This document shows, in pieces, positions 2,404 to 52,344 of a stretch of DNA of 64,000 nt. The notes below the pieces were generated by a model. That model ran no database searches. It was given only the letters and a program-made list of their open reading frames with translations, and had not been told where the DNA came from. The translations under genes and the position numbers were made by a program. This stretch comes from Mobula hypostoma (Eukaryota): the NCBI RefSeq assembly GCF_963921235.1, contig NC_086097.1:77564001-77628000 (forward strand), in the 5' to 3' direction. The number at the start of each line of letters is the position of its first letter. Within the stretch, counting starts at the first letter, position 1.

Positions 2404-3273
2404 CTTGGAAGTCTGGCTGCAGCTGCACGTGATGCTCCCCCTTAACTGGATAACTGAGCACAGGAAGATGAAAAATAGAATCAGGTGCAAAACACATGGC
2501 TCCTTAAGTGTGCTAAGCCAATTTATAGAGTCATAATGGGCAGCTTCCAGAGGAATTGTCTGGCAAAGATCCCAGAAATTGCACCTGGATCCATGGATTT
2601 TGCTAGACATTTAGTTCTATCATGGTCTGACTAACCTCTGGTGTTGTATGATGTCTCTTGCATTCTGCAGCTAACTGATCACATGAAGTAACTTTCCCAT
2701 TGGTTGATATATCTCTCTTGTGGTATGTTGCCAAAACTGCTTAGAGTGCTCAAAAGTTTGCACCCAATGAGAACTTGGTGTTGCAATAGCGACTTAACCT
2801 CTCACACTTTAGTCCTCCAGATTTAAGGACTGACATTCTGTTAAAACTTGATTGTTTTCTGTGCTTCTATGTCATTTTAATGTTCCTGGATCCACTCTTT
2901 ATGGACCTCCAGTGCTTCTAACATGTTGCTCTGAAGAACATACCCTTCCATCCAGGTTTGAAATGGATGACTCTAACCAAACTAGCACAGAAATCCATTT
3001 TACATCACATTAATCTATATCATATTTTTGTTATGTAGTGATCTCTTCTACACTGCTTACACTATTACCAATATTTATGTCATTGGTGAAATTTGATATG
3101 TGACTTCCAGCCCCTTCATCCAAAAGGAATGTATAAAATGTGAACACTTGTGATGCAAATACAAATTCTTGCAGGGCAGCATGTGTTACATCCTGCCAAT
3201 TGGGTACCTTCCTATAACCATCAAAGTTGCTGGTGAATGCAGCAGGCCAGGCAGCATCTGTAGGAAGAGGTGC

Positions 3274-3309
3274 AGTCGACGTTTCAGGCTGAGACCCTTC
3301 GTCAGGACT
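3274..3309 (-). ncRNA. Minimal type I hammerhead ribozyme motif in Penelope terminus
   Basis: Reverse complement reads agtc-CTGACGA-agg gtctcag cct-GAAA-CGTC-gact: intact core boxes, stem I agtc/gact, stem II agg/cct, GUC cleavage triplet. Confidence 0.8.
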
Positions 3310-3605
3310 AACTGAAGGAAGAGTGAGTAAAGGATTTGAAAGTTGGAGGGGGAGGGGGAGATCCAAAATGATAGGAGAAGACAGGAGGGGGAGGGATCGA
3401 GCCAAGAGCTGGACAAGTGATAGGCAAAAGGGGATATGAGAGGATCATGGGACAGGAGGTCCGGGAAGAAAGACAAGGAGGGGGGGTGACCCAGAGGATG
3501 GGCAAGAGGTATATTCAGAGGGACAGAGGAAGAAAAAGGAGAGTGAGAGAAAGAATGTGTGCATAAAAATAAGTAACAGGTGGGGTACGAGGGGGAGGTG
3601 GTGCC

Positions 3606-4237
3606 TTAGCGGAAGTTAGAGAAGTCAGTGTTCATACCATCAGGTTGGAGGCTACCCAGATGGAATATAAGGTGTTGTTCCTCCAACCTGAGTGTGGCTT
3701 CATCTTTACAGTAGAGGAGGCCGTAGATAGACATGTCAGAATGGGAATGGGATGTGGAATTAAAATGTGTGGCCACTGGGAGATCCTGCTTTCTCTGGCG
3801 GACAGAGCGTAGATGTTCAGCAAAGCGGTCTCCCAGTCTGCGTCGGGTCTCGCCAATATATAAAAGGCCACATCGGGAGCACCGGACGCAGTTAGTCGAC
3901 TCACAGGTGAAGTGTTGCCTCACCTGGAAGGACTGTTTGGGGCCCTGAATGGTGGTAAGGGAGGAAGTGTAAGGGCATGTGTAGCACTTGTTCCGCTTAC
4001 ACGGATAAGTGCCAGGAGGGAGATCAGTGGGGAGGGATGGGGGGGACGAATGGACAAGGGAGTTGCGTAGGGAGCGATTCCTGCGGAATGCAGAGAGAGG
4101 TGGGGAGGGAAAGATGTGCTTAGTGGTGGGATCCCGTTGGAGGTGGCGGAAGTTACGGAGAATAATATGTTGGACCCGGAGGCTGGTGGGGTGGTAGGTG
4201 AGGACCAGGGGAACCCTATTCCTAGTGGGGTGGCGGG
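3606..4237 (-). pseudogene. Penelope GIY-YIG endonuclease C-terminal fragment (left arm)
   Basis: RVPLVLTYHP...YPCKRNKCYTC...FTCES..CVRCSRCGLLYIGETRRRLGDRFAEH...HFNSTSH...EEQHLI...LQPDGMN. Confidence 0.9.
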
Positions 4238-4337
4238 TTGTTTGGGGCCCTGAACGGTGGTAAGGGAGGAAGTGTAAGGGCATGTGTAGCACTTGTTCCG
4301 CTTACTCGGATAAGTGCCAGGAGGGAGATCAGTGGGG

Positions 4338-4675
4338 AGTCCTTCCAGGTGAGGCAACACTTCACCTGTGAGTCGACTGGGGTGATAAACTGCGTCCGGT
4401 GCTCCCGATGTGGCCTTTTATATATTGGCGAGACCCGACGCAGACTGGGAGACCACTTTGCTGAACATCTACACTCTGTCCGCCAGAGAAAGCAGGATCT
4501 CCCAGTGGCCACACATTTTAATTCCACATCCCATTCCCATTCTGACATGTCTATCCACGGCCTCCTCTACTGTAAAGATAAAGCCACACTCAGGTTGGAG
4601 GAACAACACCTTATATTCCGTCTGGGTAGCCTCCAACCTGATGGTATGAACATCGACTTCTCTAACTTCCGCTAA
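4338..4675 (+). pseudogene. Penelope GIY-YIG endonuclease C-terminal fragment (right arm)
   Basis: SFQVRQHFTCESTGVINCVRCSRCGLLYIGETRRRLGDHFAEH...LQPDGMNIDFSNFR*. Confidence 0.9.
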
Positions 4676-4975
4676 GGCCCCACCTCCCCCTCGTACCCCA
4701 TCTGTTACTTATTTTTATGCACACATTCTTTCTCTCACTCTCCTTTTTCTCCCTCTGTCCCTCTGAATATACCTCTTGCCCATCCTCTGGGTGTCCCCCC
4801 CCCCCACCCCGTCTTTCTTCCCGGACCTCCTGTCCCATGATCCTCTCGTATCCCCTTTTGCCTATCACCTGTCCAGCTCTTGGCTCTATCCCTCCCCCTC
4901 CTGTCTTCTCCTATCATTTTGGATCTCCCCCTCCCCCTCCAACTTTCAAATCCCTTACTCACTCTTCCTTCAGTT

Positions 4976-5011
4976 AGTCCTGACGAAGGGTCTCAGCCTG
5001 AAACGTCGACT
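4976..5011 (+). ncRNA. Minimal type I hammerhead ribozyme motif in Penelope terminus
   Basis: agtc (4976-79), CTGACGA (4980-86), agg..cct, GAAA (5000-03), C, GTC (5005-07), gact (5008-11). Predicted cleavage after 5007. Confidence 0.8.
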
Positions 5012-5240
5012 GCACCTCTTCCTACAGATGCTGCCTGGCCTGCTGCGTTCACCAGCAACTTTGATGTGTGTTGCTTGAATTTCTAGCATCTGCAGAATTC
5101 CTGTTTACCTTCCTATAACCCCTCTCTTTGCCTCTTGACCCAGGAAAATAACTTCCCTTCAACTCCATGGGCTTCAACTTTAGCTACAAGTGTTTCTGAG
5201 GGACTATCAAATGCTAACTGCAGGACAACATAAATGGCGT

Positions 5241-5886: not shown

Positions 5887-6453
5887 TGTAACATGCTGTA
5901 GGGTTTCACTGCTGTGTAACATGCTGTAAGGATTCACTGATAATGTAATGGTTTCTCTGCAGCAGCAATGTCTGGGTTACGACTAGAGATAACGTGGGTT
6001 TGGAATGCTGTTGTTCTTTCTTGTGAGCTGGAAGAGAGATTTTCGTGGTCATTTGCCATGGAGAGATGAGGAGAGAAGATGCGAATGGAGAGAGTTGGTA
6101 GACCACTAGACAGGGTGGACTTGGAGCAAGGGTCCGAAGGGCAGCGACATTCTGAAGAGGTCGATGGTGGACAATTAACTTATCAGTAGGCTCCAACATT
6201 GTGCAACAGACTGTTTAATAATATTGGGTCCTTTATTTCTTTTTTTCTGTTTCTTTACTAACCATATAGTCAAAGTAAGAGTTATAAAGCTTAACCATTT
6301 AATTGCATATTGTGTACTGTTTGTTATTTCAGGGTACTGATTTGTAACAGAGGACACATCGCACAGCATCCACTCAAACTAGGTTTCTTCAGTTTGGCCG
6401 GGACGGGAGCTATCACCCCCTATATTAAGCCACTAGCTGAAGCGAAAGCTACA
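5887..6453 (+). repeat. Gypsy 5' LTR (567 bp)
   Basis: Starts TGTAAC, ends GCTACA; direct repeat of 14839-15402. Confidence 0.95.
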
Positions 6454-6457
6454 ATTG

Positions 6458-6475
6458 TGGGGGCTCGTCCAGGAT
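6458..6475 (+). promoter_or_regulatory. Primer binding site, tRNA-Pro
   Basis: tgggggctcgtccaggat is a 17/18 match to the canonical Pro PBS TGGGGGCTCGTCCGGGAT, 4 nt after the LTR. Confidence 0.9.
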
Positions 6476-6606
6476 TGATTCCGTTGGATGCTGTGTGATT
6501 ACCCTGAGCAATGAACCAGTGGGGCAGATATTTGTACTCTGGATGAATTGTTAATTCACCTGTTAAGTGCCGTTGAAGTTGTGATTGTGGGCGGAAGTTT
6601 GATAAA

Positions 6607-7684
6607 ATGGCTCGCGCAGCTCTCGTTCTAATGCAGGCCGGTGCTGAGGTAGTGGTAGCTGGGGGTGGAGATTTCAAAGACAGGGTTCTCTCATTTCTGA
6701 GGAGTGAGGGGAAAGAGTGGTTAGATTTGGAATGTCTAATTAGTCCACGTCCCCTGGTGAAGAGTGAGAATTCTGAGTTAGTATCCGCCTTTACTTCTCT
6801 GGTGAATAAATGGAAAAATCAGATTCAAAGTCCCAGCTATGGCAGGCTCTGCCTATTCTCTGGAATAACACCCACCCCTAAAGGGGAGGAGGAGTATGAG
6901 ACTTGGGTGGAGCGGACCTCCCAGTTGTTAGATGAGTGACAGTGCTCTGATGATGAAAAGTGACAGAGATTGATTGAAGGTTTGAATGGGCGGGCCGCTG
7001 ACGTTGTGAGAGCCGTCAGGCTGCGGTATCCCCTAGCAACCGTGAGTGATTACCTGGAAGCACTGGAAAGCTCTTTTAGCACAACAGGAATCCCAATGGA
7101 GCTCCTGGTGGGGTTTCAGAACATGTGTCAGGAGAAGGGGGGGAAACTTTCTGCTTTTATTTTTCTGCTAGAGAGGCGGCTAAATTGCTTGTGGCACAGA
7201 GGGGTCATTCAGGCGGCTGAGGTGGATCAGTTAAGAATGGACCAGATAGCCAGGGGCGCCCAGTCCCAGGACCTGATTGCTTGGGGTCTCCGACAGTCTC
7301 GTAAGATGTGCCCCCCTCCATCTTTTGTTGAGCTGATCAGAGAGGTACGGGAAGAGGAGAACCACATCGGAGGCGCAAGAGGACTCAGTCAGCAGGGTAC
7401 AGTCCTCGGGAGCAGTCCCCGGCGGTGAAGTGACCACAGATAGCCTACCCCAGGGAGTGGTAGAGGAGGTTGTGGCAGAGTTGAGAATGGAGGTATGTCA
7501 GCTGTTATCAGCAGGTGTGACCCCCCCCAATATGATGGAGCTGATGGGGGGGTGTGGGCGCATACCCCAAGGGGACGGACAATGCGGAGGGCTGCTGGCA
7601 GCAGGTGTCACGTCAGAAAGAGAGCGAGCCCCTGGGTACCTCAGCAAGGAGAGTCGCTGGGAAAACCTAGAGGAGACCCAGTGA
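6607..7684 (+). pseudogene. gag: Gypsy gag, PNMA/Ma-antigen-like capsid domain, disrupted
   Basis: YGRLCLFSGITPTPKGEEEYETWVE..QLLDE*QCSDDEK..RLIEGLNGRAADVV...VSDYLEALESSF...QEKGGKLSAF...PPPSFVELIREVREEE. Boundaries approximate. Confidence 0.85.
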
Positions 7685-9193
7685 GGGAACGGTCTGGTGT
7701 CTCTGTGTTCCCGACAATTACCAAGGAACCCCCGAAAGCAAAAAGGCCCTATTCCTGAAGGCTTAGTGGGTCCACGCTCCAGTGTGTCGCTATGAATAGA
7801 AGGCATTTATGCTAAAGTCATGTTCGACACCGGGTCGCAGGTCACGTTGTTGTACCGTTCGTTTTACAACCAGTATCTGATGCATTTACCACTGACACCA
7901 TTCAGGGCATTGGAGATCTGGGGGCTTAGTGCTAGTGATTATCCATATGACAGTTATTTGTCAGTGAAGTTGGAGTTCTCGGAGACCGATGTGGGAGTGT
8001 CTGAGGTCTTTGATACAGTGATGCTGGTTTGTCCGGACCCTGTTGAGGAGGGGCGGCATTTCAATTCTGGTGGGGACCAACACCCCTCTCGTGAGGAGGC
8101 TCATGGGGGCCTTGCAAGGAGAAGGCTGGTGAGAGCTTTCTGGGAACATTGTCCGTGCACCCGGGGATTTGAGCTGCTTTTGAGGAAGCACGTGGCAGCA
8201 TTGGGCTGGATACTGAATTTAGACGAGGGACTGTGTGGTTCACCCAGTCGAAGCCAATGGTGATACGGCCCGGGGAAGTAGCGAGAGTGATGGGGACCCC
8301 CAAATTTCCCGGAGTGCCTGAGGACAAAGTCCTCTTAGTGGACACTCTGGAAAACCACGAGGGGGAGTCGGGATTTCCTGCTGGGGTACTGGTGAGGCCA
8401 GAATTGCAGAAGCCCTCGGTTGTACAGGAACACAGGATGGCAGTGATTGTCAGGAACACTACGAAGAGGGAGGTCACCTTCAAGCGGGGGATGCCCCGGC
8501 GCATTTGTTCCCGGTGATGGTAATGTCTAGTGCCCCTGTGAAACACGTCGTGGAGAAGCAATTGGAAAAGGGGGGAGAGTTGACCGCTGAGTCATTCAAC
8601 TTCGGAGACTCCCCGGTTCCTGCGGGTTGAAAGAGGAGGTTGGTAGAGAGGATGTTGAAGCTGGAAGGTGTCTTTTCCACTGACGAGTTTGATGTGGGTT
8701 GTTCCAAAAGCACGCGTCACACTATCTGGGTGACTGAGGACACCTCGTTCTGAGAAAGGTCCTGGTGGCTGGCCCCTGCAGAGGTGGAGGATGTTCGGCA
8801 GCATTTGTGAAGGAAGCTGGGATCATTACCGAATCCGGAAGCCCCTATGTGTCCCCAGTAGTAGTGGCCCAAAAGAAGAATGGGAAGGTACAGATGTGTG
8901 TGGACTATAGGACTCTGAACAGGCACACCATCCCTCCCCAACCAGTGTACTATCCCGAGGATTGAAGATGCGCTGGCCTGCCTGGATGATGTGAAGTGGT
9001 TCAGTGTGCTGGACTTGAGCAGTGGCTACTAACAGATCCCTATGAGTGAGGCCGACAAAGAGAAAATGGCTTTTATATATCCCCTGGGATCTTTCCAGTA
9101 TGCCCCAGGGCATATCGGGAGCCCCTGCAACCTTCCAGCAGGTCATGGAGAAGACGGTGGGGGATATGAATTTGCTTGAGGTGTTGGTGTATC

Positions 9194-10036
9194 TGTCATA
9201 AGGCGGTGGTGGCTGGGACGGACCCAAGTGCAAGACACAGACACTGAAGTACTAGGGGCAGGACTAGGATTCAGACTGATGGCAAGGACATGGACAGGAA
9301 AACCAGGAACCTGGAGCAGGACTGGACAAGAGAGCTAGGAGACCAGGTTTGGACTCCAAGCCAGAGACTGGACAAGGACCCAGTACCTGGGTCTTGCCTC
9401 TAGCTTGGACCCCAGAACCAGGCAAGGATGAGGCTTGGCAGGCAGGCAGGACGAGGCTGAAGTCTTCAGGCTTGAGGCTAGAGGTGAGGCTTGTCAGGAG
9501 GCACGAGGCTGGAGTCTTCAGGCTTGGGGTTAGGCAGGCTTCTCCGGGGCAGGGTGCAGTTCACAACCCGACGGAGGCATGGGACAGGAAGGGACAGAAC
9601 CAACTGCAGGTGACGGCAAGACGGCCTGGCTTACCCAACAGAGGCAAGGGACAGGAAGGGAGCTAGGTACAGGATGGCTCCAGCACAAGACTGCAGGCGA
9701 GACGAGGCGAGAGTTACCAGCAAGACAGGCAAGGCTTCTGGCAAAACAAGGCGAGACGAGAACTTCAGGTGAAGCGAGAGTTACCGGCAAGACAAGGCAG
9801 GGCTTCAGGCGAGGAAACAGAAAGCAGAGGAAGAGATACAAGGAGTAAGGACAAGAACAATCCAGCAGCCATGCCCTGGTCTCTGAAGGTATTTATGCAG
9901 CCAGTCCCAACTAGCATCAGCTGACTCAATTAGAACTCAGCAAGAACAGAAATAGGGTAGACAGGAAAACCTGGAGCAAGGGTCATTGTACCAGACCATG
10001 AACTGGAATACAGACTTCACGGACCGGACCATGACA
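9194..10036 (-). mobile_element. Solo LTR (843 bp) of an unrelated LTR element, inserted in the RT catalytic motif
   Basis: TGTCAT...ATGACA inverted termini with perfect 5-bp TSD GTATC (9189-93, 10037-41). Removing it restores gtg tat ctg gat ggc (VYLDG). Strand inferred from a TATA-like cataaata on the minus strand. Confidence 0.9.
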
Positions 10037-10191
10037 GTATCTGGATGGCCTCATAGTATTTGGATCCACCTTGGAAGAACATGAAGTGAGGCTGCTGAAG
10101 GCGCTCAGCCGCCTGAAAGCTGAAGGATTTAAACTTTCCCTGGTCAAGTGTCAGTTCTGCCAAACGCCTGTTAGCTATGTTGAGCATGTAC

Positions 10192-11722
10192 CAGGTGTCC
10201 CCCGCTTTTCGAACGTTCGCTTTACGAAACCTCACTGTTTCGAAAGACCTACATTAGTACCCTGTTTTTGCTTTCAGAAGGTGTTTTCACTGTTACAAAA
10301 AAAAATTCTGCGCGCGATAAAAGGCAGCGCGCCCCGAGCAGCCGCTCTCCCCTGGATTGGGAACTGCTTTGCTTTAACACGTGCCTGTGAGCAGCCGTTT
10401 GCAAGATGAGTTCTATGGTATCGGAAAAGCCTGAAAGAGCTCATAAGGGTGTTACACTTACGGTAAAACTAGACATAATTAAGCGTTTTGATCATGGTGA
10501 ACGAAGTAAGGACAACATGAGTTTGGCTTGTGGAAGCTGATGAACATGATGTTGAAGAGGTTTTGGCATCCACCAAGAACTGACAGATGAAGAGCTGATG
10601 CAATTGGAAGAAGAAAAGGATAACAATTGAAACCGAATAAGTAATGATAAAGTACAACTTTAATTTTGAAGGGGTACGTCGGTTTAGGAGATATTTGCAG
10701 GATGGTTTGAGTCCTTATTAAAGAACTGTGTGATAGAAAAATGCGCGAGGCTCAGCAGTCAAGCAAGCCTTCCACATCAGCCACAGCAGACAACGAACCT
10801 CGACCTTCGACATCGAGGCGGGCAGAGATAGAAGAAGATGAGCTGCCTGCTCTAACGGAAATAGGCGACGAAATGACACCCCAGTGTCCCACCACCCCAA
10901 CCCCCAGGCCACGGACAGATACCGATTCACGGAGAATGCAAAGGTAGCCAGGAGGCACACAGCACATCTTTAAGGAAAAAGCCGAAATAAACATGCTAAT
11001 TAATTAGGTGCCGCCGACACCTAATTGTTGGCCCAGATCAGAGACGATGCAATCGGAAATCGGCACTGATCTGGGCCGACAATTATGGGTGGCACCTAAT
11101 TAATTAGCATGTTTGTTTCAGCTTTTTTCTTAAAGATGTACTGTGTACCTCCCGGCTACCGCTGGACCCCTGCATTCTTCGCGGCAATGTATTGCTCAGT
11201 GGCCTGGAGGGTGGGGGCCACTGCACCACTCAAACTCCGACAAGTCTAACACACCATCATCAGTGTGCTCTGCGCTGTCTTCCCGATTCCCGTAAGTGAT
11301 ACTACACTGTACATACATTATTTCTACTTTATATAGGCTGTGTATTTTTACGTGTTATTTGGTATGATTTGGCAGCTTCATAGCTTAAAGGTTACTGGAG
11401 AGAGTGTTCTTGCCAACAGCGCTTGTGTGAGATTTTTTGCTGATGGCGCTTGCGTGAGATTTTCGCTATGGAGAACAGTTCAGTAATGATTGTGGAAAAG
11501 TATTTCTACTTTATATAGGCTGTATATTTATCATATCATTCCTGCTTTTACTATATGTTACTGTTATTTTAGGTTTTATGTGTTATTTGGCATGATTTGG
11601 TAGGTTATTTTTGGGTCTGCAAACGCTCACAAAATTTTCCCATATAAATAAATGGTAATTGCTTCTTTGCTTTACGACATTTCGGCTTACGAAGTGTTTC
11701 ATAGGAACGCTCTACCTTCGTA
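10192..11722 (+). mobile_element. Tigger/pogo-like non-autonomous DNA transposon with right end lost
   Basis: Left end CAGGTGTCCCCCGCTTTTCGAACG next to TA. Remnant CENP-B-type HTH (KGVTLTVKLDIIKRFDHGERSK) and Tigger-like C-terminal remnant (D.EEVLAS...LTDEELMQLEE). Gypsy RT stops before it and resumes at LRSFLGFCGYY. Confidence 0.8.
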
Positions 11723-13151
11723 TGAGCACTCTGCGCTCATTCCTCGGGTTCTGTGGTTACTATTGGAGGTTTGTGAAAGGCTACGTGAAAGTGAGTCACC
11801 CTTTGAATCAGCTTCTGTGCAGTTACCCTCCTTGGGGAAGAAAGGGAGGGGGACAAAAGGACAGGAGGGTGAAGAGTGTCTTATCCCGTCGGAGCCCTTT
11901 GGACCAAGGTGGGATGCAAAATGTGAGGAGGCCTTTCAGTCACTGAATGAAATGCTGACCCAGGCGCCAGTGCTGGCTTTTGCGGGCCCCCGATTACCAT
12001 ATGTACTGCACACGGATGCCAGCGGAGAGGGTTTAGGGGGCGTCCTGTATCAGGATCAGGGCTCTGGGTTAAGGCCCGTTGCGTTTGTCAGCCGGAGTCT
12101 GTCGCCCCTCCCAAAAAAATTATCCCACTCACAAGTTGGAATTTCTGGCGTTGAAATGGCCGGTGGTGGATAAGCTGAGTGACTACCTCTACAGGGCCAA
12201 GTTTGAGGTGAGGACGGACAACAACTCCCTAACTTATATCCTGACCTCAGCGAAACTGGACGCCACAGGCCATCGATGGTTGGCAGCGTTGTCTGCCTAT
12301 GATTTTAGTCTGAGGTACCAGCCAGGAAGCAGGAACATTGATGAGGATGCTTTGTCCCAACGGGTGCATGAGGGACTGGACAGGGACGAGGAGCGGGAGA
12401 TCGTTCCTGCCCTGGGGGTGAAGGCCATATGTCAGTTTGCCATCACCGTGAAGGCAGAGGGAAAGGAGAGGCAGGATCGGGCAGTGGATCACTTGGGGGC
12501 TTCTGATGACACTATTCCCCAAGTTTACTGTAACCTGACTGCTCTGAAGACAAATCAGCTGCCGGAATTGAGGTCTGGGGAAGTGGCAGCTACTCAGTGA
12601 GATGATCTGGGCATTGGCACCATTTGGGCTGTGCTTGAAAAGGAAGGCATGGATCAGGCGGAGAAGATGAAACACTCGTCGATGCCTCCATTACTACAAG
12701 AATGGCCTCAGTTGGAGTTGAAGAACCAGATCTTATACCGGGTCACGTCACCCCCAGACCTACCCCGGCGTTGCCAGCTGGTTCTGCCTGAGAAGTATCG
12801 GAGGATGGCGTTGAAATTACTTCATGATGATTCTGGACACTTGGGGGTGGAAAAGACCTATGGATTGCTCAGAGACCGGTTTTACGGGTCCTGAATGAAG
12901 TCAGAGGTCGAAGAATACTGTAAGTCGTGCATTCGCTGCATACGGCGGAAGACACTGCCTACACAGGCAGCTCCCTTGTCCCACCCACAGAGCGCAGAGC
13001 CTCTGGACCTGGTGTGTATGGATTTCCTGTCAATAGAACCCGATGCCAGCAAGACGGCAAATGTCTTAGACATCACGGACCACTACACCAGATATGCTCA
13101 GGCTTTTCCTACCAAGGACCAGAGGGTGTCTATGGAGGCAAAGGTGTTATG

Positions 13152-13537
13152 TGTTGCACACTTGGACACAGAAGGGACTTCCAGGCGTGCAGAAGTTTAA
13201 AATAAACGTCTTTATTTTCCTTTCTAGAAATACAGGAACACAAGCGCATCGGCTTACCATTCATGCTGCCGGGCCATCTCAGTCTACTCCATCACGTGTG
13301 CACTCCCGTGTCCCCAGGACCCCTCAGCTGCCCCAAGTGCTTGTATAAGCTTTGCCCCTTGTAACCATCAATTAACCTCCTAAAATATTACCATTGCTAG
13401 TGCAACTGACCATTAATCAAATTGTGAATGAGCAAACTAACAAACCAAAGCAATATAAATAATATGAACATAATGTAAGAAAATTAGTGGGGTATCCAGT
13501 GTCCATTAATATGCTCCACATTACTATGGGTCCCACA
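13152..13537 (-). mobile_element. Solo LTR (386 bp) inserted in the Gypsy integrase core
   Basis: TG...CA ends with 4-bp TSD TATG (13148-51, 13538-41). Removing it restores AKVLWKKYFIYYGLP. Strand is tentative. Confidence 0.85.
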
Positions 13538-14825
13538 TATGGAAGAAGTATTTCATTTATTATGGCCTTCCCAGTCGAATACATAGTGATCAGGAGTGGA
13601 ATTTCGAAAGCAGACTCACCCGTGAGTTGCTGGGCATGCTTGGAGTCGAGAAGTCGAGGACCAGGCCCAATCACCCACAGGGTGATCCTAGCCAAAGGGG
13701 TTTAATCAGACCCTGCTAGAAATGCTCAGGACCCTTGAGATCAGGTGGAGTCAACATATTGGGCATCTGGTTCACAGTTACAACTGTACACAAAGTGAAG
13801 CTACTGGGTACACGCCATATTATCTGATGTTTGGACGCGAGGCAAGTTTGCCCATTGACCTTTGTTTTGGGACTGACAAGGGTGACTTACCACCAAAGAC
13901 TTAGCTGAAGTATGTGTCTGACATGAGAAGAGAGTTGAAAAGGGCTTATGAATTAGCTGGGGTCACGACTGCCCAGAAAAATCAAGGGAATAAGAGGAGG
14001 TACGATCAAAAGGTGAGGTTCTCCCAACTCCTGCCTGGAGACCGAGTCCTCATAAGGAACTTGGAGTGACTTGGAAAGCATAAGTTCGCTGACCGCTGGG
14101 TGGCTATGCCCTATGTGGTGGAGAGTCAGATGCCAAACCTACCAGTTTTCCTGGTGAAACTAGAGGATGGGAATGGGCCTGTCAAGATTCTCCATCGGAA
14201 CCACCTGTTGCCCCTGGGACAAGAGGTGCAGGTAGACCCAGAGCCCGACTTGGAACCTACACCTAGTAAGAGGACTCTGCGGAAATGTGGGACGACTATC
14301 GGGCCGCCAACAGGCAAGGTTACTCCGGTCCCACCCCCAAGAGGGATACTGATTCGGAGGATGAGAACCTGGATGTATGGTATATGCTGCCTTTCGCTAA
14401 CTCCCTAGTGATTGAGGAAGAGACTCCCGGTCCTTCTCCGATTGAGACAGGTGAAGTATGGGGGGGCTCTCTGTGGGCAGCCTGGTTGCAGCGGGACTCT
14501 GCAGGGGAGGAAGCAGGGTTTGATCATGGAACAGAGGGCTGCGAGTTTCCGGTGGGCACAAGTGATAGATCGGGGAAGCCTCACCAGGTAGACCGGAAGT
14601 ATCCCCAGTAGTGTCGGAACCTGAAGAGTTAGATGATGGGGTGCGGAGGTCTCAGCGAATTAAGAGACCACCGGATAGGTTAGCCTACATAGCACCAGGG
14701 GAACAGAGTGTGACCCCTACTGTGTTGAGGAGCTACGTCACTGCCTTTTACACCTGGATTGTGCTTTGTGTTTTGCAGGAAGGGTTGGTGAATTTGCTCA
14801 ATGTCATGAGGACATGAATAAATTT

Positions 14826-14838
14826 GGTGGGGGGAGAG
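14826..14838 (+). promoter_or_regulatory. Polypurine tract
   Basis: ggtggggggagag abuts the TG of the 3' LTR. Confidence 0.85.
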
Positions 14839-15402
14839 TGTAACACGCTGTAGGGTTTCACTCCTGTGTAACGTGCCATAAGGTTTCACTGATAATGTAA
14901 TGGTTTCTCTGCAGCAGCAATGTTTGGGTTATGACTAGAGATAACGCGGTTTGGAATGCTGTTGTTCTTTCTTGTGAGCTGGAAGAGAGGCTTTCGCGGT
15001 CTTTTGCCGGGGAGAGATAAGGAGAGAAGACGCGAATGGAGAGAGTCGATAGACCACCGGACAGGGTGGACTTGGAGTGAGGGTCTGAAGGGCAGCGACG
15101 ATCAGAGCAGGTCGATGGTGGACGATCGGCTTATCAGTGAGCTCCAACATTGAGCAACAGGCTGTTTAATAAGATTGGGTCCTGTTTTTCTTCTTTTGTT
15201 TCTTTACTAATCATATAGTCAAAGTAAGAATTATAAAGCTTAATCATTTAATTGCATATTGTGTACTGTTTGTTATTTCAGGGTACTGATTTGTAACAGG
15301 GGACATATCGTGCAGCATTCACCCAAACGAGATTTCTTAAGTTTGGCCGGGACGGGGAGTATCACCCCATATATTAAGCTGCTAGCCGAAGCCAGAGTTA
15401 CA
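14839..15402 (+). repeat. Gypsy 3' LTR (564 bp)
   Basis: Starts TGTAAC, ends GTTACA; direct repeat of 5887-6453. Confidence 0.95.
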
Positions 15403-34135: not shown

Positions 34136-37100
34136 TTTGTGTAAGTACTGTATGGTATGAACTATCAAGAACTGAGGATGGAAATAATCCAGAAAGAGGA
34201 GAAAGACTGGGGAGGGTATGATGAAGAGGGGAAGATACTAAGGAACTTATTAGGGAACTGTTCTTGGAACTCATGAACTCCATGACATGTCCCACTGCAG
34301 ACTGCAGCTCACTCTGAAATTTGTTAGTCCTTGCACTGAGAGATGCCAACAATTGAATGCGGAACCACAGGCAAAGCCCTGCATCATTTCCAATAGTCTG
34401 GTAAGAGCATTGAGGTTTACAGAGAACACTCTTGAGATACCCTGTAATGTGAATGCATTAAAGAAACCCATCAGACTTGATGCCAAGGTAAGCATCTATG
34501 ATTGACTGCTGAGATGTCTGACCTTCACTTAATGAATGATGTAACCTTAATCAAACAACACTGGTATTTGAATTATGTTATGCTCATCACAAGCAACTCT
34601 CTTCAATAATTCTGGAAGTGCATTTGCTATTCATTTTGAAGTCTTTCTGGCATGAAATGAGAACTTTTAATTGACTCCCATATCATCAGAAGACTGCTTA
34701 GTACGAACTTGTTATTTAGATTGAAATATTTTTCACTTTGCTGCCCTCAGGTACACTGAGAATAAGTCAATAACTGCACATGCATCTGCCAGAAACCCCT
34801 GTACTGAGACCATTAATCAGAAAGCTTTGCTAATTGGAAAATGTTGATTTCTGAGCTATTAAACTGCCTATGCCTGATGTTTATTCATAGAAAGAATAAA
34901 TGAAACTACACAAGAGCACTAAGAAAACAAACACCTTTCTGAACCAGAGCAAACATGGTAGGTCACAGTTTCACCCTCGGGGCAATGGGCAACTTTACAG
35001 GTAGTGTTAGATTTTGGTAACATTCTTCTTGAACTCTAATTAAATATCAGAAAGAGCATGGGAGTGGGCATTTTTTTGCAAGTTTCTTACATTTGAACTC
35101 CTGTCTGTTACATTAAGTGTGAAGTACAGAAATTGATCACACAAGAACTCCTGCAGATAATGGAAATCCAGATCAACGCACATTTTTAGAGGAACTCAGT
35201 AGGCCAGGCAGCATCTATGGAGGGAAATGTACAGTCACCAGTTTGGGCTGAAACCCAGCTGATCTTTACCAGGGTTTATTTTCCAGCAGAACTTCCCCTG
35301 ACTCTTCTTCATCCAAATTTAACAACAGTTCCTTTCAGTTATTTTCTCTCATGAAATAATACAAATTTCCCTTTAAACCATTTATTCTTTGCAACAACTC
35401 CTTGTATTAATGCTTTTTCTACTTTATCCTGTGTTCGAATAAGGACTATCTCCTAAATTTCCTTTTAGATTTATGAGTATATGATTATGCAACATATATG
35501 ACCATTGCAAGTAAAAACATTTTCTCAACTTTATCCTATGATGCTCTTCCATAATCATATAATTCCCCACTCAAGCCTTTTTGTTATCCTTGGAGACTAG
35601 GTGACTGCAGTTCACCCTTTCATCACTGAGGGATGTTTCTCAATTCTGCCCTGGTGCCTCTTTCTCCTCTTTGTAATGGGCTGACTAGAACCATGTTTGC
35701 ACAGCCCACCAAGTATGGTCCTTCCAAGGTCCTATATAAATTAAACATAACTTCTTTACTAGGTTAGTTTACTTGGATTCAGTTGATTTAAGTACTTAGC
35801 ATTAATACAAATACTGTACATTGTATTTACCCAACACTCCACAGCTTCCTTACAACACCATTATCTCATTATTTTTGTGCAACTCATGATTGTATACAAG
35901 ACTGGTTCAAACTGATTGTACACCAGTAATGCATGAGGAACCTATTTCTGTAACAAGCTAAAACAAGGTGCCCTCTCTTCAGCTGTATTAGTATTGGTAT
36001 GTTCTCTGTTTTTTCTGGGGAAAAAATAAAGGCAAAGGCAAAAAGCCATCTGAAATTAATTTACAGACAAAACACTACAGATACTGGAAATCTGAAAAAA
36101 AATCAGAAAATACTGGAAGTGGTCACTAAATCAGGCAATTATGCACAGAAAAAGGAACAGTGTAACCATTTCAAGCCCATGAAGAACTGTTGACCTGATA
36201 TGTTAACTCTGTTTCTCTCTCCTTAGGTCTGTTTGTTCTAGCTTACTTTGGCTCTGGATTAAATTTTTTCAGAGCGTCACTGTTAATACTACATGCTTTG
36301 TAAACTATGCTCTTAAATAACTTGATCAACAATTTACTTTTGATGATCCTTTTTCTTTTTCTTGAGATTGGGATGAACACTGATTGGTCTAACTTCAGAA
36401 TTCATCATCTGTTATTTACCGACTGAGTGTATTACAAGATTAAAAAAAATGTAGCCTCACAAGCACCAAAGGAAGGTCTGAACTTTGGCAAGAGCCATTA
36501 TTATATTCCCAGAAAACCTATAAATCAGCGTGATGCGGTCTTATCATTGCTATGCTTTTGAAAAACAAAACAGTGCAGTCTTAACTCAGCTTCTATCAGT
36601 CCTTGGGACCACAGCACCTGGATTTTCCTAGTTTATTGTTAATTGACACTCTCATTCTGAGAGCCCCAAGTTTTTAGTTCATGTAGGAAACTGAGTGATG
36701 TGTCACTGATGGAGTAGCTGATAGAAATCTGATGTTGGAAGTGATATACACTTGAGTCACACACGATCGAGCCTTATTCTGCAGTTGGCCATACAATACC
36801 TGAAGTGTTCCTCATCACCCACAAGTTTTATTTTGAGGAGCTCAAAAAACAACGTGGCAAAAACATGCCAAATCTGGCAATATTTCTTTTAATTTTGTAC
36901 TCAGTCCTTTGTCTCGAACAGTGTTGTCATCAGGAGAGTTGAACTTGAACAGGAGAAAGAAACCCAATATGAAATGAGTTGGCTCATCAGACTGACACCT
37001 AGAACGTGTCACTGTTGGCTCTGCACACTTCAACATTCTGAGAGAAGCAAACAACCACAAGTTATCATAGTCTAAATTTTGCAGTGATGGCTAAAAATAC

Positions 37101-45214: not shown

Positions 45215-46977
45215 TCTGTTAAAACAGTGACGAATGGCCTATGAGTGAAGGGCTCGGGCTGCAGTGTTGAGGTTCTGCTGTGTGAACTAGTGCTCAGCCA
45301 CACTTTGCCCAGCTTAGTCAAGACATGTGTGAACGGGGAGGTAAAGCAAAATGGCTTTTCACCTGGGAAATTGCCATCTCATGTCTCCCTCCCTCCACAG
45401 ATAATGACCTTGAGCCTTTCCAGCATTTTCTGATTTAATTTGAAACTTCCAACATCTTAACTTTGAAAGAAGATTATTTTATTTGTAAGTGCACTAATTT
45501 ACAAAGCTTATATTAAAAGCAATATTCTTCCATTATGAAGAGTACCTCGATTACCGTGAAGGTTATTGAATGGACTGACTTTTTGCAGTCAGAATGGACT
45601 GCAAACAGTCACATGGTTACACAATCAGCAGAGAAGTTATTTTGCTCCAGGCCACTTGATATCCAATTGGTAGGTGCTGGAAACCAAGAAGAACCCAAGC
45701 AGACAGTCCTTTATGCACCTTCTGTTCTTGATATAGACATCCACCTCCATCTCACCAACCTCACCTACAACAAATGTGCCACTCTTATTCACATGATAGA
45801 AAGGCAGCGATAAACAGTTTAAAATTAGGGGTGTGGAGTTAATAGAGCTACTGCTTCATATCCCCAGCAACCTTGGTTAAATCCTCACCTGCGGTGTTAT
45901 CTGTGCGGAGTTTGTACATACTCACTTTTGCTGGATGAGTTGCTTCTAGGTGCTCTCATTTCCTCCCATGACCTAAAGACATGCAAATTGGTAGATCACC
46001 CGGTCACTGTAAATTACCTTTGTGTAAGTGGATGACAGAATCTGGGAACACACATCAAAGTTGCTGGTGAACGCAGCAGGCCAGGCAGCATCTCTAGGAA
46101 GAATTTGAAAGTGGGAGGGGGAGGGGGAGATCCAAAATGATAGGAGAAGACAGGAGGGGGAGGGATGAAGCCAAGAGCTGGACAGGTGATTGGCAAAGGG
46201 GATATGAGAGGATCATGGGACAGGAGGCCCAGGGAGAAAGACAAGGGGGGGAGAAAACCCAGAGGATGGGCAAGGGGTATAGTGAGAGGGACAGGGGGAG
46301 AAAAAGGAGAGTGAGAGAAAGAATGTGTGTATAAAAATAAATAACGGATGGGATACGAGGGGGAGGTGGGGCATTAGCGGAAGTTAGAGAAGTCAATGTT
46401 TATGCCATCAGGTTGGAGGCTACCCAGACGGAATATAAGGTGTTGTTCCTTCAACCTGAGTGTGGCTTCATCTTTACAGCAGAGGAGGCCGTGGATAGAC
46501 ATGTCAGAATGGGAATGGGATGTGGAATTAAAATGTGTGGCCACTGGGAGATCCTGCTTTCTCCAGCGGAGAGAGTGTAGGTGTTCAGCAAAGCGGTTTC
46601 CCAGTCTGCGTCAGGTCTCGCCAATATATAGAAGGCCACATCGGGAGCACCGGATGCAGTACATCACCCCAGCCGACTCACAGGTGAAGTGTCACCTCAC
46701 CTGGAAGGACTGTCTGGGGCCCTGTATGGTGGTAAGGGAGGAAGTGTAAGGGCACGTGTAGCACCTGTTCCGCTTACAAGGATAAGTGCCAGGAGGGAGA
46801 TCAGTGGGGAGGGATGGGGGGGACGAATGGACAAGGGAGTCGCGTAGGGAGCAATCCCTGCGGAAAGCAGAGGGCGCAGGGGAAGGGAAAGATGTGCTTA
46901 GTGGTTGGATTCCATTGGAGGTGGCAGAAGTTACAGAGAATAATATGTTGGACCCGGAGGCTGGTGGGGTGGTAGGT

Positions 46978-47935
46978 CATAGTCATAGTCATAGTCTTAG
47001 TCATACTTTATTGATCCCGGGGGAAATTGATTTTCATTACAGTTGCACCATAAATAATAAATAGTAATAGTAATAGTAATAGTAATACTACTATTAGTAA
47101 ATAGTAAATAGTAATCGCCATGGAAATAATAAATAGTAATAGAATAGTAATAGAAAAATAGTAATAACTAGTTAAATAGTAATATGTAAATTATGAAATA
47201 AGTCCAGGACCAGCCTATCGACTCAGGGTGTCTGACCCTCCAAGGGAGGAGTTGTAAAGTTTGATGGCCACAGGCAGGAATGACTTCCTATGACGCTCTG
47301 TGTTGCATCTCAGTGGAATGAGTCTCTGGTTGAATGTACTCCTGTGCCCACCCAGAACTTTATGTAGTGGATGGGAGACATTGACCAAGATGGTATGCAA
47401 CTTAGACAGCACCCTCTTTTCAGACACCACCGTGAGAGAGTCCAATTCCATCCCCACAACATGACTGGCCTTACGAATGAGTTTGCTGATTCTGTTGGTG
47501 TCTGCTACCCTCAGCCTGCTGCCCCAGCACACAACAGCAAACATGATAGCACTGGCCACCACAGACTCATAGAACATCCTCAGCATCGTCCAGCAGATGT
47601 TAAAGGACCTCAGTCTCCTCAGGAAATAGAGATGGCTCTGACCCTTCTTGTAGACAGCCTCAGTGTTCTTAAACCAGTCCAGTTTATTGTCAATTCGTAT
47701 CCCCAGGTATTTGTAATCCTCCACCATGTCCACACTGACCCCCTGGATGGAAACAGGGGTCACCGGTACCTTAGCTCTCGTCAGGTCTACCACCAGCTCC
47801 TTAGTCTTTTTCACATTAAGCTGCAGGTAATTCTGCTCACACCATGTCACAAAGTTTCCTACCGTAGCCCTGTACTCAACCTCATCTCCTTTGCTGATGC
47901 ATCCAATTATGGCAGAGTCATCCGAAAACTTCTGA
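46978..47935 (-). mobile_element. Rex1/Babar LINE 3' fragment nested in Penelope
   Basis: KFSDDS, WCEQNYLQLNVKKTKELVVD, YKYLG, YFLRRLRSFN; (ATGACT)n tail and (TAATAG)n tract in the 3' UTR. Penelope ggtaggt|gaggacc resumes at 47936. Confidence 0.9.
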
Positions 47936-48974
47936 GTGAGGACCGGGGAACCCTATTCCTAGTGGGGTGGCGGGAGGATGGAGTGAGAGCAGATGTACGT
48001 GAAATGGGGGAGATGTGTTTGAGAGCAAAGTTGATGGTGGAGGAAGGAAAGCACCTTTCTTTAAAAAATGAAGACATCTCCCTCGTCCTAGAATGAAAAG
48101 CCTCATCCTGAGAGTAGATGCGGCGGAGACAGAGGAATTGCGAGAAGGGGATGTCATTTTTCCAAGAGACAGGGTGAGAAGAGGAATAGTCCAGATAGCT
48201 GTGAGAGTCAGTAGGCTTATAGTAGACATCAGTAGATAAGCTGTCTCCAGAGACAGAGACAGAAAGATCTAGAAAGGGGAGGGAGGTGTCGGAAATGGAC
48301 CAGGGTGAAAGTTGGAGGCAAAGTTAATAAAGTCAACGAGCTCAGCATGCGTGCAGGAATCAACGCCAATGCAGTCGTCGATATAGCGAAGGAAAAGTGG
48401 GGGACAGATACCAGAATAGGTACGGAACATAGATTGTTTCACGAAGCCAACAAAAAGGCAGGCATAGCTAGGACCCATACGGGTGCCCATAGCTACAGCT
48501 TTAGTTTGGAGGAAGTGGGAGGAACCAAAGGAGAAATTATTAATAATAAGGACTAATTCCGCTAGACGGAGCAGAGTGGTGGTAGAGGGGAACTGATTAG
48601 GTCTGGAATCCAAAAAGAAGCAGAGAGCTTTGAGACCTTCCTGATGGAGGATGGAAGTATATAGGGACTGGACATCCATGGTGAAAATAAAGCGGTGGGG
48701 GCCAGGGAACTTAAAATCATCGAAAAGAAATACACACATTCTTTCTCTCACTCTCCTTTTTCTCCCTCTGTCCCTCTGACTATATCCTCTGGTTCCCCCC
48801 CTCCCCCCTTTTCCTTCTCCCTGGGCCTCCTGTCCCATGATCCTCTCATATCCCTTTTGCCAATCACCCGTCCAGCTCTTGGCTCCACATCTCCACCTCC
48901 TGTCTTCTCCTATCATTTTGGATCTCCCCCTCCCCCGCCCACTTTCAAATCTCTTACTAGCTCTTCCTTCAGTT

Positions 48975-49010
48975 AGTCCTGACAAAGGGTCTCGGCCTGA
49001 AACGTCGACC
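48975..49010 (+). ncRNA. Hammerhead motif with core mutation (CTGACAA), probably inactive
   Basis: agtc-CTGACAA-agg gtctcgg cct-GAAA-CGTC-gacc; G-to-A change in the CUGANGA box at a CpG. Confidence 0.65.
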
Positions 49011-49879
49011 GTACCTCTTCCTAGAGATGCTGCCTGGCCTGCTGCGTTCACCAGCAACTTTGATGTGTTTTGCTTGAATTTCCAGCATCTGCAGAACTCC
49101 TGTTGTTTGCGACAGAATCTAGGACTAGTTGATAAAAGTGTAGGGAGATGCAGGATGTTGGGAGGTGCAAGGTTAATGTAGGATTGGTATAAATGGTCAT
49201 TGGAAGTCAGCACAGATCCAATGAGCTAAATGGACTGATTCAGTGTTGAGTGAGCTCTGGTAATCAAAAATTGAAGGCTAAGTAACGTGATGAGTAACTG
49301 AGACAGACCCTGTGCATTTCCAGCATTTCCGCTGAGACAGGCCAATGAGTGCAGAGCCTCTAGATAGCACGGCTGCAGAGTGAAGAGTGTTCCAAAACCA
49401 TGGCTGCTCTATCAGTGAACAAAAGGAATAAAGTTGAAATTTTCATTGTGGCTTGAATTTTGTGCATGACACTACTGGCAATCTCCTTTGGGGAAGTTTT
49501 ACATCGAAAGAGAGGTGTTGAAGCAAATGAAAATCGCTTTGAAAAGTCCAAGATCCAAATTTCCCTGTGGGTTAGAAAAGCATGAAGAAGCAGGTGCAAT
49601 GTCACTGTACTCTGGGCTCATTTGATTTTCATCTGCAGAGCACCGTAACGTTAGGAGATGTGTAGAGATCTCCAGCTCTCCTCCTCTATTTGAGGATAAG
49701 ATGGCAAACGTCAGAGGCAGCTGAATACAGAATAGACTGTCGATGTTTGCAAGAAAGCCATATTGAGAGAACAATGAACTAGACTGTGGCCAACGCTTGT
49801 GCAGCCACCACTGTGTTCTCACGACCCTCCTTGTACACAGTTCCACTCACTTCTTCATACATGAACATCGGCCTGACAC

Positions 49880-50065
49880 CGAGGACATAAAAATATGCTT
49901 CAGAGACTCAGCCGCTCAAGCAGTATCCATTGAAGGAGAAAAGAAGTTCTTCGTCAGAACTCCTGAAATATTTTTGACCTGAAACACTAACTGTTGTTGA
50001 TGGACTGAGAGTTTCTGGTATTTTGTGTTTTGATTTCAGATGTTCAGCATCTACGATTTTTTGAT
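49880..50065. mobile_element. Old miniature palindromic Penelope derivative
   Basis: Minus-strand terminus ending ttcgtcagaact, joined to plus-strand cctga...gacctgaaacactaactg and tail. Confidence 0.5.
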
Positions 50066-50519
50066 GGTCATTTTTGTTGTGATTTTCACACCAGTACATG
50101 GTTGTAAGTAATCTATACCCAGCGATCTCACATATTTTTGTTCACAAGTGTTTATGCAATTATATCATCCCCAGAAGTTCCAAGTAGAAAGCAAGTGTCG
50201 GAGGGGGGGGGGAGGTGACTGAAACTGAGGAACTTCAGAGGACAGTGGTTCTTATCCTAAGGTAGACTGCATCTAAAAGCATGCTTTGATAGCACAGTTA
50301 TTCTTTAGAATAAAAATTAACTGGACAAAAACATCTGATAGGATCTGATAATAGCTAGCATGAGGGTAGGAGGTATGTCTCTTCAGTCAACCAGAATGAT
50401 TTAAAGATACCACCACTTGCAGCTTTAAAGGTATCTACATTGGAATTGGTTCTAAGCACAGTGTGAATACTGGGATTATTTTTCCAAAGGTTTGGATTCT
50501 GCGCTATAAGAGAACTGTG

Positions 50520-51070
50520 GCTGGGCCTGTGACGCAACAGTTAGAGCTGCTGTGTCATAGTTCCAGGGACCCATGTTTGATCCTGACCTCAGGTGCTGTC
50601 TTTGTGCATGTCTCCCCTGTGACCTTGAGCAGCACATGTAAAACGTTCGAGAAACTCAACAGGTTCAACAGGATCTACTGAAGGAAATAAACAGTTGATA
50701 TTTTGGCCCAGGACCCTAAACCAGGTCTCTTCATGAAGGGCCTCGGCCTGAAATACTAATTGTTTATTTCTCCCCCGTAGATGCTGCTTGACTTGCTGAG
50801 ATCGTCCAGCATTTTATGTGTGTTGCTCAAGATTTCCAGCATCTACAGAATCTCTTGTCTCCCTATAACTTGGTAGGTTTCCTCTGAGTGTCTGGACCCT
50901 TGGCAAAGACATACTGTTTGTAGATTAATTAGCTTCAGTGCATGAGCCTTAGAGTAGGTGTATTACATGAGAATTGGTGTGCTGCTGAAGTTGATGGTGA
51001 TGCATGAGAATTAAAATAGGATTAACATAGGACACGATGGGCTGAGTGGCTTGTTTCCTCACTTGATCAC
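50520..51070 (+). mobile_element. V-SINE/HE1-type SINE split by a miniature Penelope palindrome
   Basis: tRNA-derived head (gttagagctgctg...cagggaccc.tgtttgatcctgacctc.ggtgctgtct); the body resumes at about 50856. Confidence 0.7.
50628..50855. mobile_element. Miniature (about 230 bp) palindromic Penelope derivative: two inverted hammerhead-containing termini, no ORF
   Basis: Arms pair (gatctactgaaggaaataaacagttgatattttggcc versus ggcctgaaatactaattgtttatttctcccccgtagatg). Flanking near-duplication tgtctcccctgtgaccttg / tgtctccctataacttgg. Confidence 0.75.
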
Positions 51071-51444
51071 TATGACGTTAAAAGTCACCTCTCTACTTGA
51101 GCACGCTGGGTGGGTGGGGGGTGGTGTTGAGTGTATAAAGTTATCACTGGCTAGACATCTCTTTCTGTGCAAAAAACTTGCTGAAAGGCAGTTCTCAACA
51201 ACAGGGATCAGGGTAAAAGGAGGGACAGGTAGGATAGCTTCAGCCTGTCAAACCCTACTGTCTCAGCTATACTGTCCATCAGTAGGGGATCTAAAACAAC
51301 TGGCTAACACAGCAGTGCACATGATCAAATCAATGGCAGGGAACAGGAACACTACTGCATCTCAATTGCATGGCACTTACGTACCTGGTCATAGAAGTCA
51401 GGGACTTTAACTGTTTCTTCCAAAGGAGAAACACATATGGGTTA

Positions 51445-51540
51445 TGGGTAAGCCTAGTAATTTCAAAGGTAGAGACATGTTCGGCACAACTTTGTGGGCC
51501 GAAGGGCCTGTATTGTGCTGTAGGTTTTCAATGTTTCTAA
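51445..51540 (+). mobile_element. Short CR1 3' tail
   Basis: tgtgggccgaagggcctgtattgtgctgtaggttttc.atgtttcta. Confidence 0.7.
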
Positions 51541-51867
51541 AACAAATATGCATGGATTAGATCAACAGGGGGAGTTACTAGGCATAGAGAACACTGATTA
51601 AAATGATATACATTAATTACCTAGGGGATATCTTGAAGTTAGTGAAAATTCAAATTAGCAGAGACGGGGATGAGTTTCCTTGGTAATTTATAGAACCATA
51701 ATGGAGATTGTAAATTGGTTCAAGAACTCACAAATATATCAGGATACCATAGAATCAGAGTCCCTTGGGAGGGAGTTTGTAAGCTCCATTAAGTTGGAAG
51801 GGAGTGTGTAATTATATAGATATTGGTTCAAAGTTTAAATTGAGTGAAGAATGTAGAGAATGGGATC

Positions 51868-52344
51868 ACAAGCATGAAAATATCTGCAGATGCTGGAAAT
51901 CCAAGCAATACACACGAAATACTGGAGGAACTCAGCAGGCCAGGCAGCATCTAGGCTTCCTCTACTGCCACAATGAGGCCACACTCAGGTTGGAGGAGAA
52001 ACACCTTATATTCTGTCTGGATCGCTCCAACCTGATGGCATGAACATCAATTTCTCCAACCTTCAGTAATTGTCCCTCCCCTCCCCTTCATCATTCTCCA
52101 GCCCTTTATATCTTCCACCAATCAACTTCCCAGCTCTTACTTCACCCCTTTCCCTCTCCTAGTTTCACCTATCACCTGCCAGCTTGTACTTTGTCCTTCC
52201 TTCCCCCACCTCCTTCTTGCTGGGACTTCTCCGCTTCCTTTCCAGTCGTGACAAAGGGTCTTGGCCAAACATGTCATCTGTTTACTCTTTTCCATAGATG
52301 CTGCCTGGCCTCCTGAGATTCTCCAGCATTTTGTGCATGTTGCT
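51868..52344. mobile_element. Short fold-back Penelope derivative: inverted terminus, last codons of GIY-YIG, 3' terminus
   Basis: 51868-51953 is the reverse complement of the tail. Then GFLYCHNEATLRLEEKHLIF, a pyrimidine-rich UTR and a degenerate hammerhead at about 52243-80. Confidence 0.8.

Follow-up and report, generated by a model that had tools for sequence, protein, structure and literature searches.

A short head-to-head pair of Penelope-like 3' ends within a SINE of Mobula hypostoma, read as a minimal insertion product

A palindrome of about 230 bp, with no ORF left in it, raises the question of whether very short fold-backs made of retroelement ends are units that replicate or by-products of the way in which their parent element integrates. 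It lies in a repeat-rich stretch of 64,000 nucleotides of the Mobula hypostoma genome (contig NC_086097.1, positions 77,564,001 to 77,628,000), which was analysed as a whole and is referred to here as the window. The first-pass annotation had offered two alternatives for this locus, a non-autonomous, retrozyme-like family or the minimal product of the integration of a Penelope-like element (PLE). The choice matters to annotators, as such stumps are easily misfiled as MITEs, and it also matters for PLE biology, in which the origin of the inverted copies is stated as open in the accessible text of two recent accounts (PMC8557442, PMC11167929). Very short fold-backs, having gone through the fewest confounding steps, are a useful probe of how these inverted copies are formed.

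In the target (50628-50858), which lies within a SINE, the 3' end of a GIY-YIG PLE is present twice, head to head. Both arms are recovered by nhmmer with a profile made from nine further Penelope ends in the window, the target and the elements at 49880 and 36060 being excluded. The minus arm lies at 50627-50738 (E 1.6e-7), the plus arm at 50733-50856 (E 2.8e-20); in the reversed window, the top match of the same profile has an E of 6.1. The arms are 73% identical (70 of 96 alignment columns), and among 3000 random centres only 2 reached their pair score, both inside an unrelated palindrome near 11050. Folded as RNA, the target forms a single rod from which the 3' tail stays free (z -8.2), and none of 200 shuffles was equally stable. 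The earlier description of some 230 bp of minus and plus termini that meet at the hammerhead is therefore borne out by both profile and fold. In element coordinates, in which the C of the hammerhead core CTGATGA is position 0, the left arm (50628-50728, minus strand; nhmmer, mapping and subfamily profiles) is a PLE 3' end without tail that extends from -4 to +95, and the right arm (50728-50858, plus strand; nhmmer and subfamily profiles) is a PLE 3' end with tail that extends from -2 to about +128, its final 3 bases overlapping the target-site duplication (TSD). The head-to-head junction is found at 50725-50729, where the left arm reaches -4 and the right arm begins at -2, with one shared base, and the core Cs (50724 and 50730) are 6 nt apart. 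The tail, of about 30 nt, is present only on the right arm (50828-50858, plus strand), is unpaired in the fold and agrees with the 30-40 nt described in the available parts of the PLE literature (PMC8557442, PMC11167929).

The host SINE, interrupted by the target, is presumably of the HE1/V-SINE family, a name for which a search gave no result. Its 5' part, with a tRNA-type head (50522-50627, plus strand), is colinear with a second copy, and its 3' part, placed by the same colinearity, occupies 50873-51000 (plus strand), with an approximate end. A decayed TSD of 15-19 bp borders the insertion: the left copy (50609-50627, plus strand) matches the right one (50856-50872, plus strand) in 14 of 19 columns, and 50624-50627 can also be read as element. 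This TSD is modest to marginal when taken alone, because 3.1% of 20000 unanchored random pairs and 2.9% of 1000 anchored pairs are as good; the call is strengthened by another SINE copy (45842-46040), with which both flanks align colinearly across the site of insertion (E 2.2e-7), in agreement with the first-pass reading of a SINE insertion with a degenerate duplication of about 18 bp.

Both arms were scored with subfamily profiles from which the tested arms had been left out. The left arm gives 57 bits with the middle-aged subfamily, 36 with the old one and 3 with the young one, and the right arm 108, 84 and 57, respectively, so that both appear to be of the middle-aged subfamily. In a tree of 18 arms, 1 of the 15 inner branches was well supported; it was resolved in the young group only and did not group the two target arms. 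Judged from these sequence scores, a chance adjacency of two ends seems unlikely; arms of different subfamilies and absent TSDs had been named beforehand as the signs of such an adjacency, and neither was observed. Two independent solo ends adjoining by chance might be expected where PLE ends are as dense as here (about 20 arms in 64 kb), and the 27% divergence between the arms is compatible with them; a MITE, in turn, would share with the target its short size, its non-coding nature, its inverted repeat and its TSD. Both are nevertheless highly improbable, given that the arms share a subfamily, a single TSD surrounds the pair, the SINE is colinear across it and there is no spacer. Moreover, the inverted repeat is asymmetric, since it ends 30 nt before the right end and leaves the tail outside, the TSD is long for a MITE, and the sequence is homologous to the 3' end of a GIY-YIG retroelement.

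The target is a real, old and fixed insertion that is common to at least three related species. A Logan contig of 1752 letters from the window species spans the left boundary and the centre without a single difference, at a depth of 16.8 (14-17 in the flank), and contigs of two relatives, organisms B and C, span the same two points at flank depth; for organism D, none of the contigs listed lay over the target. Assembly error is ruled out because the centre is bridged at single-copy depth in three species. The orthologue of organism B differs from the window at 8 of 284 positions in the element and at 63 of 3281 in the listed flank contigs (Fisher p 0.27), and that of organism C at 25 of 288 and 108 of 1918, respectively (Fisher p 0.047). 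The element diverges faster than its flanks in both comparisons, indicating that it is not conserved.

Three young arms retain an intact hammerhead motif, and each target arm carries a decayed one at the homologous position. The minimal-hammerhead descriptor identifies 3 sites in the window (3305, minus strand; 4980, plus strand; 54046, minus strand), all in young arms, and none in 50 shuffles; neither target arm passes it, and Rfam gave no hammerhead match in the window. In the left arm (50692-50728, minus strand) the core and the GAAA are mutated, and in the right arm (50728-50762, plus strand) the core and the cut triplet, so that both target hammerheads are mutated and, as far as can be read from these changes, dead. 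The term ribozyme-bearing that was applied to this locus is correct by descent and does not describe an intact motif. The motif of the young copies is of the same minimal type I as that reported for PLEs in the accessible text of Cervera and De la Pena 2014 (PMC4209133), where Schistosoma is said to have opposite-strand hammerhead pairs about 100-700 bp apart, linked to truncated PLEs, whereas the target cores are 6 nt apart, head to head and mutated. Self-cleavage was considered as the maker of the junction and discarded, since the junction lies at -4 to 0, about 30 nt upstream of a cut triplet that ends at +27.

Five further fold-backs of the window can be compared with the target, which together form a junction census of six elements. 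Copy A (3219-5106) is a young PLE insertion with inverted arms 96% alike, a perfect 15-bp TSD, intact hammerheads and a GIY-YIG frame, presumably belonging to the Penelope/Poseidon clade. Its frame matches GIY-YIG with an E of 0.0017, under the Pfam cut-off, and its homologues carry RVT_1 and GIY-YIG (P0011) or RVT_1 (P0013); the top matches are from rays and sharks (92% with a Mobula protein, 74-76% with Hypanus; 14 matches among 612 candidates). Several ray gene models with host names (P0002, P0007, P0012, P0014) contain Penelope-derived peptide, either by exonisation or by annotation error. Copy A also contains a 101-bp direct duplication (3934-4034 and 4239-4339) beside its inversion junction, which makes it a composite of three segments. 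Copy B (46047-49112), also young, has an RT remnant, a 14-bp TSD and a nested LINE, and is inserted in a SINE; a protein comparison of its frames with those of copy A found nothing. Its place in the size series proposed by the first-pass annotation (46048-49110) holds for about 2.1 kb of Penelope sequence and fails for a nested piece of a different LINE (about 0.95 kb, at about 46978-47935). Element E (51866-52344) comprises an 88-nt tailed inverted arm that ends at +46 and an untailed arm of about 390 nt with the end of a GIY-YIG frame, which contradicts its earlier description (51868-52344) as a mini-element without ORF. Element F (49889-50087) is a fold-back of the older subfamily with a TSD of about 13 bp and deletions in both arms; its left arm types weakly as old (41 bits, against 32 for the middle-aged subfamily) and its right arm as old (75 against 23). 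Element G (36062-36262) is an old fold-back that can be retained only as weak: the arms of the fold-back formerly placed at 36060-36240 have E values of 0.14 and 9.6 (first round), and its TSD is at the 7.5% level. The TSDs of copies A and B were equalled by none of 1000 pairs, that of E by 1.0% and that of F by 2.9%; TSDs of 13-19 bp, longer than the 8-10 bp of the rotifer PLE examples seen in the accessible literature, flank five of the six fold-backs at or below the 3% level. The three fold-backs with unequal arms (A, B and E) all have an untailed longer copy and a tailed shorter inverted copy. Two of the six (B, at 45842-46047, and the target, at 50522-50627) are in the same SINE at different positions, too few to speak of a preference.

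The target has the features that define a PLE insertion, namely an inverted 5'-truncated copy adjoining the 5' end, a tail on one end and a TSD, and both of its arms agree in sequence with the ends of copies A and B, as a PLE 3' end (pLTR) should. The EN+ PLE insertion units described in the available parts of Arkhipova et al. 2013 (PMC3846280), Craig et al. 2021 (PMC8557442) and Schostak et al. 2008 (PMC2377424) share with it the inverted 5'-truncated copy, the one-ended tail of 30-40 nt, the TSD, the palindrome at the inverted junction and inverted repeats of variable size, the last of which are also reported in PMC8969392; in the target, unlike these units, both copies are cut to about 100-130 nt and no ORF is left. 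On these grounds, the target is very probably a dead-on-arrival, extremely 5'-truncated insertion of an EN+ PLE with the usual inverted second copy, and no replicating unit. This fits the second of the two initial alternatives and is near the published accounts (PMC11167929, PMC3846280, PMC8557442). The locus is thus an ordinary decayed repeat, a new instance of a known architecture, and a mini-family is not supported by the six fold-backs compared. The literature searched, including that on chondrichthyans and consisting mostly of papers outside subscription and without Repbase, yielded neither minimal ray fold-backs nor breakpoints at the hammerhead 5' edge.

The inner breakpoints carry most of the information on how such stumps arise. 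They are at -4/-2 in the target, at -4/-2 or -4/0 in F and at about +16/+3, inside the hammerhead, in G; in E one is at +46 and the other several hundred nt upstream, and in copies A and B they are hundreds of nt upstream. The junctions of the target and F, just 5' of the hammerhead core and about 30 nt from the cut site, agree within 0-3 nt, a weaker statement than the identical junction considered at one stage, since the right arm of F has two registers of equal cost. Were ends distributed evenly across about 60 nt, one would expect both ends to agree to within 3 nt among three minis in a few percent of cases or less, a rough estimate on which the greater ease of spotting fold-backs that reach the hammerhead also bears. 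Solo arms with an apparent start close to the core (1390, 17237, 31580) were left out of the count, because homology between subfamilies begins there. The outer ends of the arms in the window also recur, at about +86 to +97 and at about +119 to +130.

Agreement between two junctions could be expected of a fold-back mini-family, in which a palindromic master would be transcribed and reinserted whole by PLE proteins. The target and F do have the same polarity, non-autonomous PLE derivatives are known (retrozymes, and MRC1 in the accessible part of PMC8557442), and PLE proteins are reported to mobilise unrelated sequence between pLTRs in trans (PMC3846280, seen in part). This reading is unlikely, however, as the target and F belong to different subfamilies (middle-aged and old) and have short outer ends about 8 nt apart, two of the four small fold-backs (E and G) have other junctions, and the F-type junction motif occurs exactly once in the window. 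In addition, the RNA of such a unit would fold into a rod in which its hammerhead and start sites are themselves paired, and with one hammerhead per strand it would presumably not allow the excision of a unit-length circle. The retrozyme-like alternative of the first-pass annotation fares no better, in that the locus has no head-to-tail repeats and a single hammerhead per strand, and that subfamilies and outer ends differ. According to the accessible text of Li et al. 2026 (10.64898/2026.07.22.740005), non-LTR retrozymes, reported there in one chondrichthyan, are also short, non-coding, pLTR-derived and hammerhead-bearing, but they consist of units repeated head to tail, each of which has its own hammerhead, whereas the target is a single head-to-head pair with a TSD and both cores broken. 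Pattern scans for further copies gave 0 and 0 hits in viral_contigs, 0 in metagenome_contigs and 0 in genome_contigs; 119 metagenome_contigs loci with a 19-letter motif were attributed to chance, 9 of them reaching E 1e-3 by profile, almost all with little beyond the motif.

Long inverted repeats are unstable, and a longer ordinary inverted PLE insertion could have lost its interior by hairpin-driven deletion, leaving a symmetric stump. The internal deletions in the arms of F and in the left arm of copy B are in line with this possibility, which we consider quite improbable: such deletions usually leave a spacer and broken symmetry, while the target arms stop no more than 2 nt apart, without a spacer and at the same place as in F, and the junction is bridged in three organisms.

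Under the preferred reading as a truncated PLE insertion, the 5' edge of the hammerhead would probably be a true preferred stop point, which suggests a simpler account than a family, as the latter needs two masters with the same junction. A recurrent junction remade at a preferred stop was missed by the rule proposed initially, by which one shared junction denotes a family and random junctions denote two-ended priming. What would halt the cDNA at -4 to 0 may be the start of the RNA, a splice acceptor or the hammerhead stem itself. About half of the likelihood granted to a preferred stop goes to the template RNA's 5' end. An initiator-like 7-mer is present at -4 in young, middle-aged and old copies; it was discarded as a sign of RNA start, as 6 such sites occur in 427 nt of element end and its bases also make up hammerhead stem I. 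The Drosophila virilis element has, in the accessible text of PMC4209133 and PMC2377424, a start about 120 nt upstream and an intron ending at helix I, which makes a splice acceptor an equally good reading of the -4 site. Position +46 (51953, 49025), where the short arm of E ends, marks the 5' border of a short inverted repeat within the element end, after a pyrimidine tract and AG, and is possibly a second preferred breakpoint.

The mechanism that would produce the target can be sketched as follows. The RT/GIY-YIG protein would nick the two strands of the target at points about 15 nt from each other, which gives rise to the TSD, and each nick would prime reverse transcription in the element RNA at about +90 or about +128, generating the untailed and the tailed end, respectively. 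One RT start site would be used per strand; the link between RT starts and ends has been shown for an anole element. Both cDNAs end after 100-130 nt at the hammerhead 5' edge; these ends, which share one base, were presumably linked head to head and then filled in, and the copy, now common to at least three related species, has since decayed neutrally. According to the available part of Frangieh et al. 2024 (PMC11167929), the anole Poseidon element PAc acts in vitro on both strands of the target, cutting and extending each, and has two internal RT start sites whose spacing equals the tail, a predicted dimer and no need of hammerhead cleavage. PAc differs from this sketch in that the same start site use was reported for both strands, and that text neither derives the inverted copy from two-strand priming nor reports a preferred 5' stop point.

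Within the preferred reading, we lean slightly towards priming from both strands. A single primed cDNA followed by snap-back or template switch is a less probable, though substantial, alternative, and in the accessible text of Arkhipova et al. 2013 (PMC3846280) inverted junctions are attributed to self-priming and not to two-strand priming; the window data are compatible with both. A more tentative idea, doubtful at present, is that these minis are run-off products resembling a strong stop: the RNA would start about 4 nt before the core, a protein dimer would prime from both target strands at the two start sites of the 5' pLTR, and the cDNAs would fall off the template end and join. If this were true, a very large fossil record mapping the 5' end of the element RNA would be preserved in the genomes of rays and sharks, two-strand priming would be documented in vivo, and the inverted repeats of PLEs would be explained across subfamilies.

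Between 118,000 and 238,000 contigs per run align to the stretch, and 877-1665 per run have loose unrelated ends behind 50858 and 52335 (1352-1665 behind 50858). As loose ends are found behind both terminus types, the family is very abundant and both end types recur. Depth over the left arm (2466) and the right arm (229847) is uninformative in this respect, the left arm being too diverged to catch paralogues at 80%. Among the 12 listed of 800 spaced joints, some land at element positions 0, +3 and +46 (the latter twice); contig depth is no copy number, and these joints are leads only. The 15 listed of 3840 joints are mostly paralogue switches. One contig of run X1 joins the short terminus at 49065 to the start of the hammerhead core at 48979 with 3 letters between them, which, if it is a direct repeat, would be a head-to-tail, retrozyme-like unit of about 90 nt.

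Other repeats of the window are a very high-copy short repeat at 51442-51584, which we take to be a LINE 3' end and whose summed depth exceeds 1 million in all four runs, and a decayed LTR retrotransposon (5887-15402) whose gag/pol frames are broken and whose terminal repeats, 567 bp in length, are 88% alike. The pol region of the latter harbours the strongest fold-back of the window, a 322-bp palindrome (10895-11216) that is DNA-transposon-derived in appearance and whose weak Rfam match to mir-7131 (32 of 74 bits) reflects only its hairpin.
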